Below, piece after piece: positions 11,569 through 14,006 of a stretch of DNA of 45,644 bases. The notes beneath the pieces were generated by a model. The model did not search any database and was not told the DNA's origin. It worked only from the letters and a program-made list of their open reading frames with translations. Source of the stretch: Bacteroidales bacterium (lineage in GTDB: Bacteria; Bacteroidota; Bacteroidia; Bacteroidales; JAOZQN01); NCBI GenBank assembly GCA_029932195.1, contig JAOZQN010000003.1, positions 1 through 45,644 of the forward strand. Direction: 5' to 3'. A program made the translations under genes and the position numbers. Numbering within the stretch: the stretch's first letter is position 1; every line of letters begins with the position of its first letter.

Positions 11569-11675
11569 GGCTCACATTGAAAAGTTGAGGAGGAGTAATT
11601 ACGAACCGTATCAAAAAGTTAGAAATTACTCTAAATTTTACAACCTGTATGCTCTACAATGATGCTGATATGTTT
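11569..11675 (+). repeat. B-type dispersed repeat (full copy) abutting the stop codon of 11674..12213
   Basis: GGCTCACATTGAAAAGTTGAGGAGGAGTAATTACGAACC...CTCTAAATTTTACAACCTGTATGCTCTACAATGATGCTGATATGTTT. Near-identical to 27233..27339. Confidence 0.7.
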
Positions 11676-12213
11676 AAAATCTTTTTTCATTCTTCTCAAA
11701 TAGCGGAATACCGAATTTTTCTAAAAACTCAACTTCAAAATTCATCCATGATGTATCTTGACGAGGATATGTATTTGGTGTAGAAACATAAGCTTCTAAA
11801 TTTAGTCCTAAATAATTTTTATCAAGTTTTTCATCGAAGTAATCAATTGTGTTTGAAAGTTGCTTTATTGCCTTTTTTCTATTTTTTCTTATTGCTCGAA
11901 CTTCTTGACTTGTTGCATTTAACTTAAATTCTAAAAAACAAAAATCTTTCTTGCTAAAAATAACAGTATCGCAATATGATGTCCCAAAATTTAATAATCC
12001 ATTTTTACCATCAATTGGAATGAAAAAGATTTCTAAACTTTGTTCGTTATATACTGAAAAGCACTTACCCATTTCGTTACAACTTTGATAAATTTTAGAC
12101 ATTCCTTGAATGTCAATTATGTAAAACATATCACTTGTTTCAGTTTGAACAAAATTATCAATATTATTATCTACTTTTTGTAAATCTTTTTTTAGTTTAT
12201 TTATTTTGTTCAT
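11674..12213 (-). CDS. Small protein with a minimal PD-(D/E)XK-like motif, partner of the upstream ATPase
   Basis: 179 aa. The start overlaps the ATPase stop by 4 nt. YCDTVIFSKKDFCFLEFKL gives D82-x12-E95-x-K97 in strand-like hydrophobic context. I recognise no named family. Confidence 0.6.
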   Translation of the reverse strand: MNKINKLKKDLQKVDNNIDNFVQTETSDMFYIIDIQGMSKIYQSCNEMGKCFSVYNEQSLEIFFIPIDGKNGLLNFGTSYCDTVIFSKKDFCFLEFKLNATSQEVRAIRKNRKKAIKQLSNTIDYFDEKLDKNYLGLNLEAYVSTPNTYPRQDTSWMNFEVEFLEKFGIPLFEKNEKRF

Positions 12214-13736
12214 TTCCGTGCAAAGGATTTAGAGTGAATAGAATATAGTTTATTGAAATCGCCACTTAATATTTCAGATACTGTATCTAAATAATTTTGA
12301 TTTATTAACCCTGTTTCTTGATTTACAATATTTTCACAATAAACACCTTCTGCTATATCTTGAACATTACCTGTTAAAGAATATGCAGCAAAATCGATTT
12401 GTTTTAATCTAATATCATTTTCAATTATTTCATCTACTTCATTTACTGAGTTCGAGTTTTTTTCAACAACTCTTCCTGCAAATAATAAATTATTAAAAAC
12501 TGTTAAGACGTATGGACTGTGGGTTGTAATAATTAATTCATTTCCTTGATTAACAAAATATGCTAAAAGTTCAACTACTAATTTTTGAGCAACTGGAAAT
12601 AAATGGGCTTCTGGTTCTTCAATTACTCTCAATGCTTTTTGTTTCTCAATTAAGGTTAAAAATATGTCTTGTAATATTCTTATCACTTCTTGTTGACCAG
12701 AAGATGAATTGTGAAGATGAACAGTTTGTCCTGTTTTATTGTTTATTATAATTTTTTCATTTCCGCCATATTGTTCTAAAATATATTTGCCTTTTAGTAT
12801 AGCACTTATTTTTTTTTCCAAATTTAGAAAATCTTTTTTTGGTAATTCATCTTTCTTTAAGTTAGACGTGATTAATTTTTCAAAACTGCCATGCTTTTTA
12901 AAAACACTTTTAATCTTAGATATTCTTTCTATAAAATCTAACATTAATATTTCATCAATAGCTTGGTCATTTATACTGTTTATTGAAGACTTTATATTTT
13001 CAATTTTATTTTGGGTATTTGCGAATAAATATTTTTCAAATAAGTCAGAATAGCTTACTGTTGCATTTCGTCCGGCAATTACATATAATGAGGAACTTTG
13101 ATGACAGTCAAATAAATTATTAACAAAGTCTGATATGTTTTTTATATAATTATTTTCTGCTCCTTTTTTTATTATTTTATCAAACGCTGATGGGAAATTA
13201 GAGGAGAGGTTCTTTTTTAAGATTGATTTTTGCCCTTCTTTTTTTATTTTAGTTGCATTAGTTTCGATTTCATTTTTTAAATTAGGACTAAACTCTACAA
13301 ATAGTTTTTTTTCTAAATCAATAGTTAAATATATATGGTAATCTTTTTCAACATTGTAATAGTAAGTTATTTTAAATTCAGGAATATCTGTTGGTTGCCC
13401 AAAATAAAGTTCGTATTTATTTTTAACAGGAATAAATAAATCATTTTTTAGGTTAAATTTCTTAAATCTATTTTCAAACTCTTCGTCCCTAAGTTTAAAT
13501 AGATATTCTTCTTTTGAGTATTCTTTGTATGTTTTAATAAAATATTCGTCTTCAAGAAATGAATTGTCTTTGTATATACCATTAAATAATTCATCTCTAA
13601 TTGATTTGAAAAAATAGATTAACTTTGCGATTGTGCTTTTTCCACTTGCTTGTTCCCCAATAAGAAGTAATATTTTTTTTATTTCAATTTCTGCATCTTT
13701 TATTGCACCGAAATTTTTAATTACTATTTTTTGCAT
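12210..13736 (-). CDS. ABC/SMC-type (AAA_15/AAA_21-like) ATPase
   Basis: 508 aa. Walker A GEQASGKST near the N-terminus, a long insert, SSGQQE signature-like motif, Walker B LRVIEEPEAHL, H-loop ITTHSP. Confidence 0.8.
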   Translation of the reverse strand: MQKIVIKNFGAIKDAEIEIKKILLLIGEQASGKSTIAKLIYFFKSIRDELFNGIYKDNSFLEDEYFIKTYKEYSKEEYLFKLRDEEFENRFKKFNLKNDLFIPVKNKYELYFGQPTDIPEFKITYYYNVEKDYHIYLTIDLEKKLFVEFSPNLKNEIETNATKIKKEGQKSILKKNLSSNFPSAFDKIIKKGAENNYIKNISDFVNNLFDCHQSSSLYVIAGRNATVSYSDLFEKYLFANTQNKIENIKSSINSINDQAIDEILMLDFIERISKIKSVFKKHGSFEKLITSNLKKDELPKKDFLNLEKKISAILKGKYILEQYGGNEKIIINNKTGQTVHLHNSSSGQQEVIRILQDIFLTLIEKQKALRVIEEPEAHLFPVAQKLVVELLAYFVNQGNELIITTHSPYVLTVFNNLLFAGRVVEKNSNSVNEVDEIIENDIRLKQIDFAAYSLTGNVQDIAEGVYCENIVNQETGLINQNYLDTVSEILSGDFNKLYSIHSKSFARK

Positions 13737-13825
13737 ATTGAATTATTATTTATTACGATTTAAATTTCAAATTTAGTTATTATTTCTGATTTATATGTTT
13801 TTTTTCAATTACCTATATCGGATAA

Positions 13826-14006
13826 ATCATTGTGAGCCGTGTGAGTTGTAAAGTTATTCGTTTTTTTTGACAATTCCAAATTAAAATGACTTTGTTTTTT
13901 TTAAATTATAGATTAACTTACAAACAGTAAGGATAATAGCTTTAAGAAATATAAAAAAAGAAAACTAAATGTTTTACATTATCCTCCTCTACTTTTCAAA
14001 GTGAGC
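13826..14006 (-). repeat. A-type dispersed repeat (long form) with a promoter-like pair facing the ATPase operon
   Basis: On the minus strand: TTTG (13877..13880), 20-nt spacer, TAACTTTA (13849..13856). Its termini are homologous to the B-type termini (GCTCACTTTGAAAAGTAGAGGAGGA ... TTTACAACTCACACGGCTCACAATGAT). About 90% similar to 29578..29752 by eye. Confidence 0.7.

Follow-up and report, generated by a model that had tools for sequence, protein, structure and literature searches.

The window analysed here, a 45,644-nt stretch of contig JAOZQN010000003.1 from a Bacteroidales bacterium, carries on its minus strand a 2.1-kb operon of two genes, in which an ABC-type ATPase gene is followed by the gene of a 179-aa protein. 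Both open reading frames proposed in an initial annotation of this DNA (508 and 179 aa) are present, as is the 4-nt overlap of stop and start codons, an ATGA at 12210-12213. Taken together, the open reading frames, the overlap, the protein motifs and the inverted repeats that flank the operon lie far beyond chance. The features of the operon are as follows:

12210..13736, minus strand: ATPase gene (508 aa), WonA-like OLD-type ABC ATPase, PDC-M29A-like
13632..13658, minus strand: Walker A motif GEQASGKST (residues 27-35); K33 aligns with WonA K34
12687..12704, minus strand: ABC signature SSGQQE (residues 345-350)
12600..12632, minus strand: Walker B and D-loop LRVIEEPEAHL (residues 369-379); E374 aligns with WonA E300
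12513..12527, minus strand: H-loop TTHSP (residues 404-408); H406 aligns with WonA H333
12210..12213, minus strand: ATGA stop/start overlap of 4 nt, translational coupling
11674..12213, minus strand: small-protein gene (179 aa), WonB-like small predicted PD-(D/E)XK nuclease, PDC-M29B-like
11923..11970, minus strand: predicted catalytic core, D82 (11968-11970), E95 (11929-11931) and K97 (11923-11925)

The ATPase and its small partner

Each of the two proteins has hundreds of homologues. The initial annotation had assigned the 508-aa protein to a class of ATPases used in defence and had located its motifs; each motif was found in its place, and the ABC/OLD-type assignment is borne out by matches to Pfam AAA_15 (6e-28) and AAA_21 (3e-15) and by the AF2 model (pLDDT 83.9), for which the closest folds identified by Foldseek are PtuA (E 2e-8), Rad50 and AriA. 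Among 42 homologues, G32, K33, S34 and T35 of the Walker A motif and S345, S346, G347 and Q348 of the signature are invariant, as are all of K33, R223, E374 and H406. The C-terminal region (residues 410-508) is also conserved, with F449, Y452, I478, L483, D484, S487, L490, F494 and Y498 invariant in the same set.

The 179-aa protein has no match in Pfam or NCBIfam, and its family profile matches no PDB sequence. The AF2 model (pLDDT 93.4, pTM 0.90) consists of an extra β domain, formed by the N-terminal 60 residues, and a core of strands 62-66, 83-86 and 90-96, helix 105-130 and strand 138-144, which matches the PD-(D/E)XK topology, in which three strands are followed by a helix and a last strand, the second strand is opened by an acidic residue and the third carries (D/E)xK. 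In this model D82 opens strand 83-86, E95 lies inside strand 90-96 and K97 is one residue past the end of that strand. The top Foldseek matches in the PDB are restriction endonucleases and Holliday-junction resolvases (BsoBI, Nt.BspD6I, RecU, FokI, EcoT38I, XPF/Hef and Hjc); their E-values are weak (best 5e-3, TM about 0.37) and the superposition is confined to the C-terminal ~95 residues. Across 43 homologues, with a mean column identity of ~50%, D68, E95, K97 and Q118 never vary, and D82 is conserved in at least 90%. The modelling and structural comparison proposed for this protein thus support a PD-(D/E)XK fold, and the D82-x12-E95-x-K97 motif previously read as a minimal nuclease-like core corresponds to its conserved centre.

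Relationship to WonAB and PDC-M29

The initial annotation regarded the pair as a candidate undescribed cassette and could name no family for the small protein. The pair is in fact of a described kind, as both proteins match the PADLOC PDC-M29 models, PDC-M29A at 1.2e-26 for the ATPase and PDC-M29B at 2.9e-9 (142 of 164 model positions) for the 179-aa protein, these being raw HMM E-values, taken without the per-model thresholds and system rules of PADLOC. PDC-M29B is the only PADLOC model matched by the 179-aa protein; it is matched by all 43 sampled homologues, and remoter representatives score up to 2e-22. PDC-M29 is a candidate system, a 'guilt-by-embedding' prediction (Payne et al. 2024, bioRxiv 10.1101/2024.01.29.577857; Table S8: CAS_00123, FAM_00005>>FAM_02872), and no mention of it by name was found in the literature text searched. 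The window pair shares with it the gene order, ATPase and then partner, as well as the matches to both models.

WonAB, an abortive-infection system from the Vibrio cholerae WASA-1 prophage, has been shown by experiment to protect against phage (Adams et al. 2025, Nat Microbiol, PMC12137116). V. cholerae WonA matches PDC-M29A (3.7e-23), and WonB matches PDC-M29B and no other PADLOC model (1.2e-9), so that the window pair and V. cholerae WonA/WonB match one pair of models with comparable strength. Similarity of the ATPase to the WonA sequences of Supplementary Table 4 of that study is direct: 40% identity over 425 aa (E 3e-82) with the protein of Saprospira grandis WH, 2.5e-56 with that of Geobacillus, and two BLASTP segments with that of V. 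cholerae (31% over 163 aa, 1e-21, and 39% over 98 aa). The S. grandis WH pair is hit #139 in the authors' own WonAB list (Supplementary Table 4, PMC12137116), and its WonB is matched by the 179-aa protein with 38% identity over 133 aa (E 3e-20) and scored at 1e-31 by the family profile of the latter. Compared directly, the 179-aa protein and V. cholerae WonB give a weak match (BLASTP E 0.02, 25% identity), and hhalign of the 179-aa family with a set of six core WonB sequences yields E 4e-4 at a probability of 35%, in a register that aligns all of IPIDG, CD, ExK and AIxQL. It is this motif register, together with the intermediate sequences and the common PADLOC model, that ties the 179-aa protein to V. 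cholerae WonB.

The residues mutated by Adams et al. (WonA K34, R182, E300 and H333, and WonB K71; PMC12137116) are all kept in the window pair, where the former align with K33, R223, E374 and H406 of the ATPase and K71 aligns with K97 inside the ExK motif. The architecture is also that of WonAB, a two-gene operon with the gene of an OLD-type ABC ATPase upstream of that of a small PD-(D/E)xK-variant protein. In contrast to V. cholerae WonB, which has 139 aa, the window partner has 179 aa, the extra N-terminal β domain, an insertion past ExK (NATS...RAIRKNRKK) and ~25% identity; the ATPase, at 508 aa, has enlarged inserts, and the pair lies on the chromosome of a Bacteroidota organism, whereas V. 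cholerae WonAB is prophage-borne. The PDC-M29 scores are modest (1e-26 and 3e-9), so the pair is a sister clade of the sequences behind these models. Judged on sequence, the operon is very probably a divergent, long-form member of the WonAB/PDC-M29 family of anti-phage systems. Adams et al. (PMC12137116) equate WonAB with an operon of Krishnan, Burroughs, Iyer & Aravind (2020), 'OLD-ABC ATPase + novel restriction-endonuclease-fold protein', and report that homologues of the latter encompass all WonAB homologues; the window pair has the same architecture, and its membership would follow through WonAB.

The statement that this ATPase class is not known to be paired with a small PD-(D/E)XK protein is likewise outdated, WonAB and HEC-02 being tested examples. 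HEC-02 combines an ABC ATPase with a NERD-domain partner, both genes being needed for defence (Payne et al. 2024), and resembles the window pair in having a separate nuclease of the PD-(D/E)xK superfamily. However, the window ATPase matches HEC-02A at a generic level only (7e-11) and the 179-aa protein matches neither HEC-02B nor NERD in PADLOC and Pfam, so that HEC-02 was set aside. Septu, or the PtuAB of retron type I-A, and PARIS AriAB share the principle of a sensing ATPase that works with a separate effector nuclease; PtuA is the nearest solved fold of the window ATPase and AriA is among its Foldseek matches. Their partners are HNH (PtuB) and Toprim (AriB) proteins, whereas the window partner is of PD-(D/E)XK type, and their inserts and C-terminal extensions are unlike those of the window ATPase. 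Septu was rejected because the 179-aa protein has no HNH match in Pfam or PADLOC, PtuA being a structural neighbour only, and PARIS because it has no AriB or Toprim (DUF4435) match in the same collections; the ATPase does match the AriA model at 1e-38, which is a generic AAA_15-like model.

The long-form clade is found in Bacteroidota and in filamentous and other Cyanobacteria (~450 clusters at 50% identity), and the two genes travel together between these phyla. In all eight other contexts examined the ATPase gene lies directly upstream with the 4-nt overlap, the ATGA junction being read in five loci of other organisms and the overlap deduced from gene coordinates in three more. This confirms that the coupled genes are inherited as a unit, as does the co-variation of ATPase and partner identities across loci (58/70, 56/67, 50/53 and 46/46%); in at least 16 further homologue pairs the two proteins come from contigs of equal length, which is indirect evidence that they co-occur. 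The window is rich in defence candidates, as had been claimed, with HEC-01 and two PDC-S02/DUF1016 genes. Elsewhere the picture is mixed: RM or Abi genes adjoin the pair in three of the eight contexts, and several pairs lie amid housekeeping genes (adjoining pheT, beside murD in the dcw cluster, and at pgk/tatD). No homologue of the 179-aa protein was found in collections of phage genomes, plasmids and viral contigs.

The flanking repeats

The inverted repeats that the initial annotation had placed on either side of the operon (B at 11569..11675 and A at 13826..14006) exist, as does the promoter-like pair TTTG-N20-TAACTTTA in the upstream copy (13880..13849, minus strand), and related sequences occur elsewhere in the window:

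13804..14006, minus strand: upstream repeat A1, with outer inverted repeat 13982-14006 and leader motif 13826-13852
13849..13880, minus strand: Bacteroidota-type promoter-like elements of A1, -33 TTTG (13877-13880) and -7 TAACTTTA (13849-13856)
11569..11675, plus strand: downstream repeat B1, with outer inverted repeat 11570-11594 and an inverted copy of the leader motif at 11637-11663, ending at the stop codon of the 179-aa gene
27233..29752, minus strand: second unit with the same flanks, B2 (27233-27359) and A2 (29558-29752)
6041..7769, minus strand: third unit with core flanks only, B3 (6041-6128) and A4 (7669-7769)
4658..4757, minus strand: fourth A-type promoter module, A3, upstream of a small open reading frame and an intact DUF1016/PDC-S02 gene

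The outer inverted repeat of 25 nt (11570-11594 and 13982-14006) is 92% complementary and its pattern occurs four times in the window against none expected from shuffles; an inner inverted motif of 27 nt is common to the A and B flanks, and its A-type and B-type centres are each conserved within their own type. The B copy at 11569-11675 is 97% identical to 27233-27339, and the A copy at 13824-14006 is 91% identical to 29577-29751. The cargo between them is unrelated: a MORN-repeat lipoprotein and a split DUF1016/PDC-S02 gene in the second unit, and a 493-aa protein in the third, which lacks the outer inverted repeat. The unannotated cargo proteins had no match in NCBIfam or PADLOC. No B partner was found for A3, and no further diverged A or B copy was detected in the window by nhmmer. 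Among GTDB representative genomes and JGI metagenomes, the 27-nt motif gave isolated matches only, without further repeat sequence; the flanks are thus a repeat family found, among the genomes and metagenomes searched, only in the source organism, where it provides at least three unrelated gene sets with a promoter and a downstream module. In other genomes the WonAB-like pair occurs without these repeats. Scans of the window against Rfam and for tRNAs returned nothing, so the repeats are not a known RNA family. A structured-RNA role was dropped, as the repeats fold no better than shuffled sequence on either strand (z -1.2 to +1.1) and no intrinsic terminator-like site was found. A long-range panhandle between the 5' and 3' ends of the mRNA was also rejected, as the A/B differences would by inspection give C-A mismatches and not wobble pairs.

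The repeats may be shared regulatory modules, with A as promoter and operator or leader and B as an inverted operator downstream, placing several accessory and defence operons under one regulator without any mobility; we consider the odds of this to be a little short of even. Each of the four A copies precedes a minus-strand operon and keeps a -33 TTTG, a -7 TAnnTTT[A/G] at a spacing of 19-20 nt and a 26-nt leader, elements that were judged against the consensus of Bacteroidota promoters, while each of the three B copies follows one of these operons. The type-specific conservation of the A and B motif centres is more in keeping with distinct functional modules than with degenerate transposon ends. 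However, B1 and B2 are 97% identical over 107 non-coding nucleotides, which implies recent copying, beyond what selection on a binding site would maintain. It also counts against this reading that no regulator was identified, that the repeat RNA is no more stable than shuffled sequence and that a terminator-like site was not found.

Alternatively, the flanks would make the operon a non-autonomous mobile insertion cassette that shuttles defence genes within the source genome, with a transposase or recombinase from another locus acting on its terminal inverted repeats. In mobile insertion cassettes and MITE-flanked cargo, such as MIC231 of Bacillus cereus, passenger genes lie between inverted repeat ends without a transposase. 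The window units are similar in that the same ends enclose different cargo, with the 25-nt outer and 27-nt inner inverted motifs (none expected by chance), near-identical flanks at 27233-29752, core flanks at 6041-7769 and defence candidates among the enclosed genes. In addition, the similarity of B1 breaks off 2 nt or less from where the 179-aa gene has its stop codon, similarity to other genomes spans only 11672..13750, and short-read contigs of the source organism break inside the repeats, which must therefore be multicopy. The genome also holds an evidently recently duplicated MITE, in two 226-nt copies that are 100% identical. We nevertheless regard such mobility as unlikely. Apart from terminal inverted repeats, the hallmarks of a transposon-like element were not seen: the sequences bordering the units form no consistent target-site duplication (ATG/ATG for one, TTT/ATT for the other), Pfam scans of the window revealed no transposase or recombinase, and neither a cognate IS nor an empty site came to light, nor did the same cargo at a second location. 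All contigs of the source organism have the same arrangement, and a search for an empty site through exact-protein look-up of the downstream neighbour returned only such contigs or contigs broken at the repeat. The repeat is moreover absent from GTDB species representatives and JGI metagenomes, the third unit has no outer inverted repeat, and, unlike the ends of mobile insertion cassettes, those of the window units are two distinct conserved variants, of which one is a promoter module. Integron gene cassettes were rejected, as the flanks are inverted, the units are separated by resident genes and Pfam scans found no integrase.

Somewhat more speculative, and improbable in our estimate, is that the A/B pair constitutes a previously undescribed promoter-carrying non-autonomous cassette or exchange system. 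Through it, defence genes such as the WonAB-like pair and DUF1016/PDC-S02 would be inserted and exchanged at intergenic positions in this Bacteroidota lineage, with one end supplying transcription and both ends serving as recombination sites.

Proposed mode of action and significance

By analogy with WonAB, a model for the operon can be proposed. Transcription would most likely start from the Bacteroidota-type promoter TTTG-N20-TAACTTTA in A1. The ATPase may dimerise through its nucleotide-binding sites, its conserved C-terminal extension (~residues 410-508) may act as a platform for the nuclease, and its variable Insert 1, with 31 extra residues here, may sense infection. Once phage infects the cell, the nuclease would be licensed by ATP binding or hydrolysis. 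As WonAB arrests translation without degrading the chromosome (PMC12137116), the target is probably an RNA; the infection would then abort.

It is very unlikely that the pair has no anti-phage role and acts as a toxin-antitoxin or addiction module or else in housekeeping, as a Rad50/SbcC-like repair ATPase and its nuclease. The location of some homologous pairs amid core genes (pheT, the dcw cluster, pgk/tatD), the Rad50 and SMC heads among the structural neighbours of the ATPase and the toxicity of overproduced WonB (PMC12137116) could be read in this way. Against this, the distribution is patchy over two phyla in variable contexts, neither a long coiled coil nor an Mre11-type partner is present, and for WonAB a simple toxin-antitoxin role was excluded by experiment, WonB being toxic only with active WonA, and phage protection was shown directly (PMC12137116). 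That the 179-aa protein keeps a nuclease-like fold but serves as a non-catalytic adaptor or sensor, with the effector activity elsewhere, would suit its weak structural E-values, its lack of a sequence match to a solved structure and its additional 60-residue β domain, but is hardly credible given the invariance of D68, E95, K97 and Q118 and the conservation of D82 (at least 90%) in 43 sequences, and given that K71, the WonB lysine aligned with K97, is essential for both defence and toxicity (PMC12137116).

A WonAB-type anti-phage system thus remains the preferred reading of the operon; the kind of system is already described, and the window pair is a new, divergent member of it. On this reading the validated WonAB family extends to a distinct long-form clade in Bacteroidota and Cyanobacteria, and PDC-M29, a PADLOC candidate, is tied to a system of known phenotype. 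The fold and residue map (K33, R223, E374 and H406 of the ATPase; D68, D82, E95, K97 and Q118 of the predicted nuclease) offers targets for mutagenesis, and the 'hypothetical protein' partners of AAA_15 ATPases may be better annotated. The A/B repeat pair frames several defence-type gene sets and, if mobile, would represent a new vehicle for defence genes.

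The ATPase and its small partner

The coding content of the operon is as the initial annotation described it, with two minus-strand reading frames that overlap by 4 nt in the sequence ATGA.

12210..13736, minus strand: ATPase, 508 aa (reading frame and Pfam)
11674..12213, minus strand: small protein, 179 aa (reading frame)

All four predicted ATPase motifs are in place, namely Walker A (GEQASGKST, aa 27–35), the signature (SSGQQE, aa 345–350), Walker B (LRVIEEPEAHL, aa 369–379) and the H-loop (TTHSP, aa 404–408), and Pfam assigns the protein to AAA_15 (6e-28) and AAA_21 (3e-15). 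The solved structures closest to the ATPase, which was modelled with AlphaFold2 (pLDDT 83.9, pTM 0.85), are PtuA of the Septu and retron type I-A complexes (E 2e-8), followed by Rad50, SMC heads and AriA; sequence-level matches are confined to a Thermus OLD-family nuclease and the retron Ec78 ATPase, both weak. Within Insert 1 the protein carries 31 extra residues (aa 60–70 and 74–93; within 13458..13559) that are missing in at least 80% of 41 homologues. This region (aa 60–93) is modelled with low confidence (pLDDT 62–75), and it has been proposed to tune trigger specificity (Payne et al., bioRxiv 10.1101/2024.01.29.577857).

The small protein has no match in Pfam or NCBIfam. A word-indexed search returned 158 homologues of ∼175–205 aa, none with a Pfam domain, from Bacteroidota and Cyanobacteria (Dolichospermum, Anabaena, Nodularia, Sphaerospermopsis, Pseudanabaena and Microcystis), and its profile matched 449 of 1.84 billion cluster representatives at E ≤ 1e-3 (206 at E ≤ 1e-10). 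An alignment of 43 sequences shows no variation at P66, D68, G69, G72, C81, F93, E95, K97, R112, Q118, T122 and E140, and conservation of at least 90% at D82. The AlphaFold2 model built from this alignment (pLDDT 93.4, pTM 0.90) comprises strands 62–66, 83–86 and 90–96, a helix (105–130) and a further strand (138–144), with D82 opening strand 83–86, E95 inside strand 90–96 and K97 one residue past its end. Foldseek against the PDB ranks restriction endonucleases and junction resolvases highest (BsoBI, Nt.BspD6I, RecU, FokI, EcoT38I, XPF/Hef and Hjc); the E-values are weak (best 5e-3), the match to Nt.BspD6I spanning 95 columns at an rmsd of 3.3 Å with probability 0.97. Matches in a viral structure library are similarly weak and include some endonuclease-type proteins. 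The minimal PD-(D/E)XK core proposed earlier (D82/E95/K97) is therefore supported, though as a remote fold match.

Relationship to PDC-M29 and WonAB

The pair had been put forward as a candidate undescribed cassette whose small protein fits no nameable family. In PADLOC-DB the small protein matches a single model, PDC-M29B (2.9e-9, 142 of 164 model positions covered), and the ATPase matches PDC-M29A (1.2e-26). PDC-M29B is matched by all 43 aligned homologues, and remoter family members score up to 2e-22. PDC-M29 is one of 145 predicted phage defence candidates, all nominated from genes lying inside BREX, DISARM or type I RM systems (Payne et al., bioRxiv 10.1101/2024.01.29.577857), and its name is absent from the text of papers in the literature collection searched.

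A validated relative is the wonAB operon of the Vibrio cholerae WASA-1 prophage, whose products are an ABC ATPase of the OLD type (WonA) and a small protein of a PD-(D/E)xK variant (WonB) (Adams et al. 2025, PMC12137116). Both WonA and WonB are required for protection from ICP1 and from Vequintavirinae of E. coli, and the two together suffice; defence is abolished by WonA K34A, R182A, E300A and H333A and by WonB K71A. WonB toxicity requires active WonA and stops translation while genomic DNA stays intact, and the C-terminal extensions of WonA, once dimerised, are the predicted docking site for WonB. The same authors relate WonAB to PD-T4-4 and to the 'OLD-ABC ATPase + novel REase' operon of Krishnan et al. 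2020 (PMC12137116).

When the window proteins were compared with sequences of Supplementary Table 4 of PMC12137116, the ATPase matched the WonA proteins from Saprospira grandis WH (40% identity across 425 aa, 3e-82), from Geobacillus thermoleovorans (2.5e-56) and, in two segments, from V. cholerae (1e-21 and 4e-10). The small protein matches the WonB hit listed for Saprospira WH (38% identity across 133 aa, 3e-20; 1e-31 with the family profile), and its match to V. cholerae WonB is weak (25%, E 0.02). A profile–profile comparison with six core WonB sequences gave E 4e-4 but a probability of 35%, with the motifs in register (IPIDG/kvDgC, CD/CD, FxEFK/FIELK and AIxQL/AIxQL). In the joint alignment WonA K34, R182, E300 and H333 correspond to K33, R223, E374 and H406 of the window ATPase, and WonB K71 to K97. 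The V. cholerae proteins also fall into the same PADLOC models at the same score level as the window proteins (WonA in PDC-M29A, 3.7e-23; WonB in PDC-M29B only, 1.2e-9). The Supplementary Table 4 matches, the alignment of experimentally tested residues and the common PADLOC models together place WonAB, PDC-M29 and the window pair in one superfamily. The window pair represents a long-form clade of it, its small protein having an additional N-terminal β domain and an insertion after the ExK motif.

Of the original interpretation, the part retained is that an ATPase of defence type and its PD-(D/E)XK partner are translationally coupled and conserved as a unit; the pair is a divergent addition to WonAB/PDC-M29 and not an undescribed system. 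The accompanying premise, that this ATPase class is partnered only by Toprim or HNH proteins, fails because HEC-02, validated by Payne et al. (bioRxiv 10.1101/2024.01.29.577857), pairs an ABC ATPase with a NERD partner, NERD being a PD-(D/E)xK domain.

The intact ATPase and nuclease motifs, the translational coupling and the co-inheritance of the two genes are shown. By homology with WonAB, the ATPase dimer would hold and license the nuclease through its C-terminal extension (aa 410–508). Infection may be sensed, perhaps by the ATPase inserts, triggering a nuclease activity that is probably directed at RNA of the translation apparatus and would abort the infection.

Conservation of the pair and related genes in the window

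The two genes are conserved together: in each of eight further contexts an AAA_15 ATPase gene directly precedes the partner gene and overlaps it by 4 nt as in the window (a hydrothermal-vent metagenome, an uncultured genome, Pseudanabaena minima, Bacteroides graminisolvens, a Bacteroidales MAG, the cyanobacterial chromosome AP018314, whose protein cluster is named Sphaerospermopsis kisseleviana, a Saprospiraceae MAG and a JGI metagenome). Where the junction sequence was read, at five loci from other organisms, it is again ATGA. Identities of ATPase and partner to the window proteins co-vary (58/70, 56/67, 50/53 and 46/46%), and at least 16 further homologue pairs have identical longest-contig sizes in both protein searches, an indirect sign of co-occurrence.

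Gene neighbourhoods differ among the eight contexts. Abi or RM genes are neighbours in three (AbiEii with AAA_15/RloB in the first; an N6_Mtase/Methylase_S protein in the second; PLD-SNF2, a D12 methyltransferase and an MmeI-type enzyme in the third). Transposases are present in two, and other neighbourhoods are of housekeeping type. The pair of the Saprospiraceae MAG (locus L036, 42..1987) is directly upstream of murD, whose start is overlapped by the partner stop, and thus sits beside the cell-division (dcw) cluster, an unusual site for a defence module.

The window also holds a second ATPase–partner pair (32680..34743, minus strand), which lacks the repeat flanks described below.

33343..34743, minus strand: HEC-01A-like ATPase (PADLOC HEC-01A 8e-139; Pfam AAA_21/AAA_15)
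32680..33339, minus strand: HEC-01B-like partner (PADLOC HEC-01B 9e-38; Pfam DUF4276)

A 570-aa protein (37494..39206, minus strand) in which AAA-ATPase_like (PF09820) is fused to PDDEXK_9 is a fused counterpart of the two-gene architecture.

Repeats flanking the operon

The inverted repeats reported around the operon are present (25 nt, 11570–11594 and 13982–14006, 92% complementary) and more structured than had been recognised. Where none is expected, the window contains the 25-nt pattern four times. The pattern belongs to two types of element, A and B, being common to the outer ends of A1/A2 and B1/B2 (B1 and B2 97% identical over 107 nt, A1 and A2 91% over 183 nt). The A core of ∼100 nt was located with nhmmer.

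A core, each copy upstream of a minus-strand operon: 4658–4757 (A3), 7669–7769 (A4), 13804–13903 (A1), 29558–29656 (A2)
B element, three copies downstream of operons headed by A copies: 6041–6128 (B3), 11569–11679 (B1), 27233–27359 (B2)
6041–7769, repeat-flanked unit: 493-aa protein
11569–14006, repeat-flanked unit: WonAB-like pair
27233–29752, repeat-flanked unit: MORN-repeat lipoprotein and split DUF1016/PDC-S02 gene
4658–4757, A3 module without a B partner: followed by a small ORF and an intact DUF1016/PDC-S02 gene

The promoter-like pair noted earlier is found in the A core as TTTG, a spacer of 19–20 nt and TAnnTTT[A/G], which we take to fit the Bacteroidota −33/−7 promoter consensus, followed by the leader CAACCCGCACGGCTCACAATGATTTG. 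B elements bear the 27-nt leader motif inverted, with a constant centre (GTATGMTCT) that differs from that of the A type (CACGGCTC).

At the DNA level the window resembles the wonAB-like operons of other genomes only across 11672..13750, and so essentially over the two genes alone; none of these loci carries A/B repeats. When GTDB species representatives and JGI metagenomes were scanned for the 27-nt motif, only isolated loci matched, 4 and 17 respectively, none with further repeat sequence. Short-read contigs of the same organism, whose population is also represented by GCA_029935815.1, SRR21545385 and SRR21545387, end inside repeats, which implies further copies elsewhere in its genome. The repeat-flanked units have no consistent target-site duplication, the window encodes no transposase or recombinase, and the repeats have no stable RNA structure, terminator-like site or Rfam match. 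We therefore treat the repeats as a family of promoter/downstream modules found only in this organism. They may derive from a MITE, an origin considered because the window also has two identical copies of a 226-nt element bounded by 31-nt terminal inverted repeats, and mobility or cassette exchange through them is possible.

The 226-nt element itself (4770–4995 and 20188–20413, 100% identical; terminal inverted repeats 4768–4798/4968–4998) looks like a recently copied MITE, and one copy is directly upstream of A3. A 36-nt intergenic repeat (TTGGCTTTTGGCCTCGCAAAGCGACAAAAAACTAAG) lies just beyond gene ends at 9221–9251, 14013–14048, 37448–37483 and about 5100–5140, one copy abutting the outer end of A1. 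Three tandem 35-nt units (4333–4448), each with the palindrome GAAACAnnTGTTTC, separate the small ORF after A3 from the DUF1016 gene. Between genes 41996..42745 and 43132..45099, a tandem array of ∼15-nt units (TTTTGAGTTATCGTG, about 12 copies) faces its own reverse complement (42748–42983 and 43000–43129) across a gap of ∼16 nt (42984–42999); an ungapped repeat finder places arms of about 100 nt at 42823–42926 and 43000–43103, 73 nt apart.

Both DUF1016/YhcG PDDEXK nuclease genes (PADLOC candidate PDC-S02, up to 1e-125) are on the minus strand (3283..4329; 27295..28212 with 28240..28404), the second broken into a 54-aa N-terminal and a 305-aa piece with a frame extending into B2. Pieces of an extracellular contractile injection system (973..3093, 7836..9173 and 9269..9709, minus strand; an eCIS_core-domain protein, an AAA ATPase and a gp19-like tail tube) are scattered among the repeat-flanked units, and no sheath or baseplate gene was picked up by Pfam scans of the window.

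The repeats that frame defence-type genes are a second point of modest interest, beside the link now made between the PADLOC candidate PDC-M29, together with a large Bacteroidota/Cyanobacteria clade, and the validated system WonAB.
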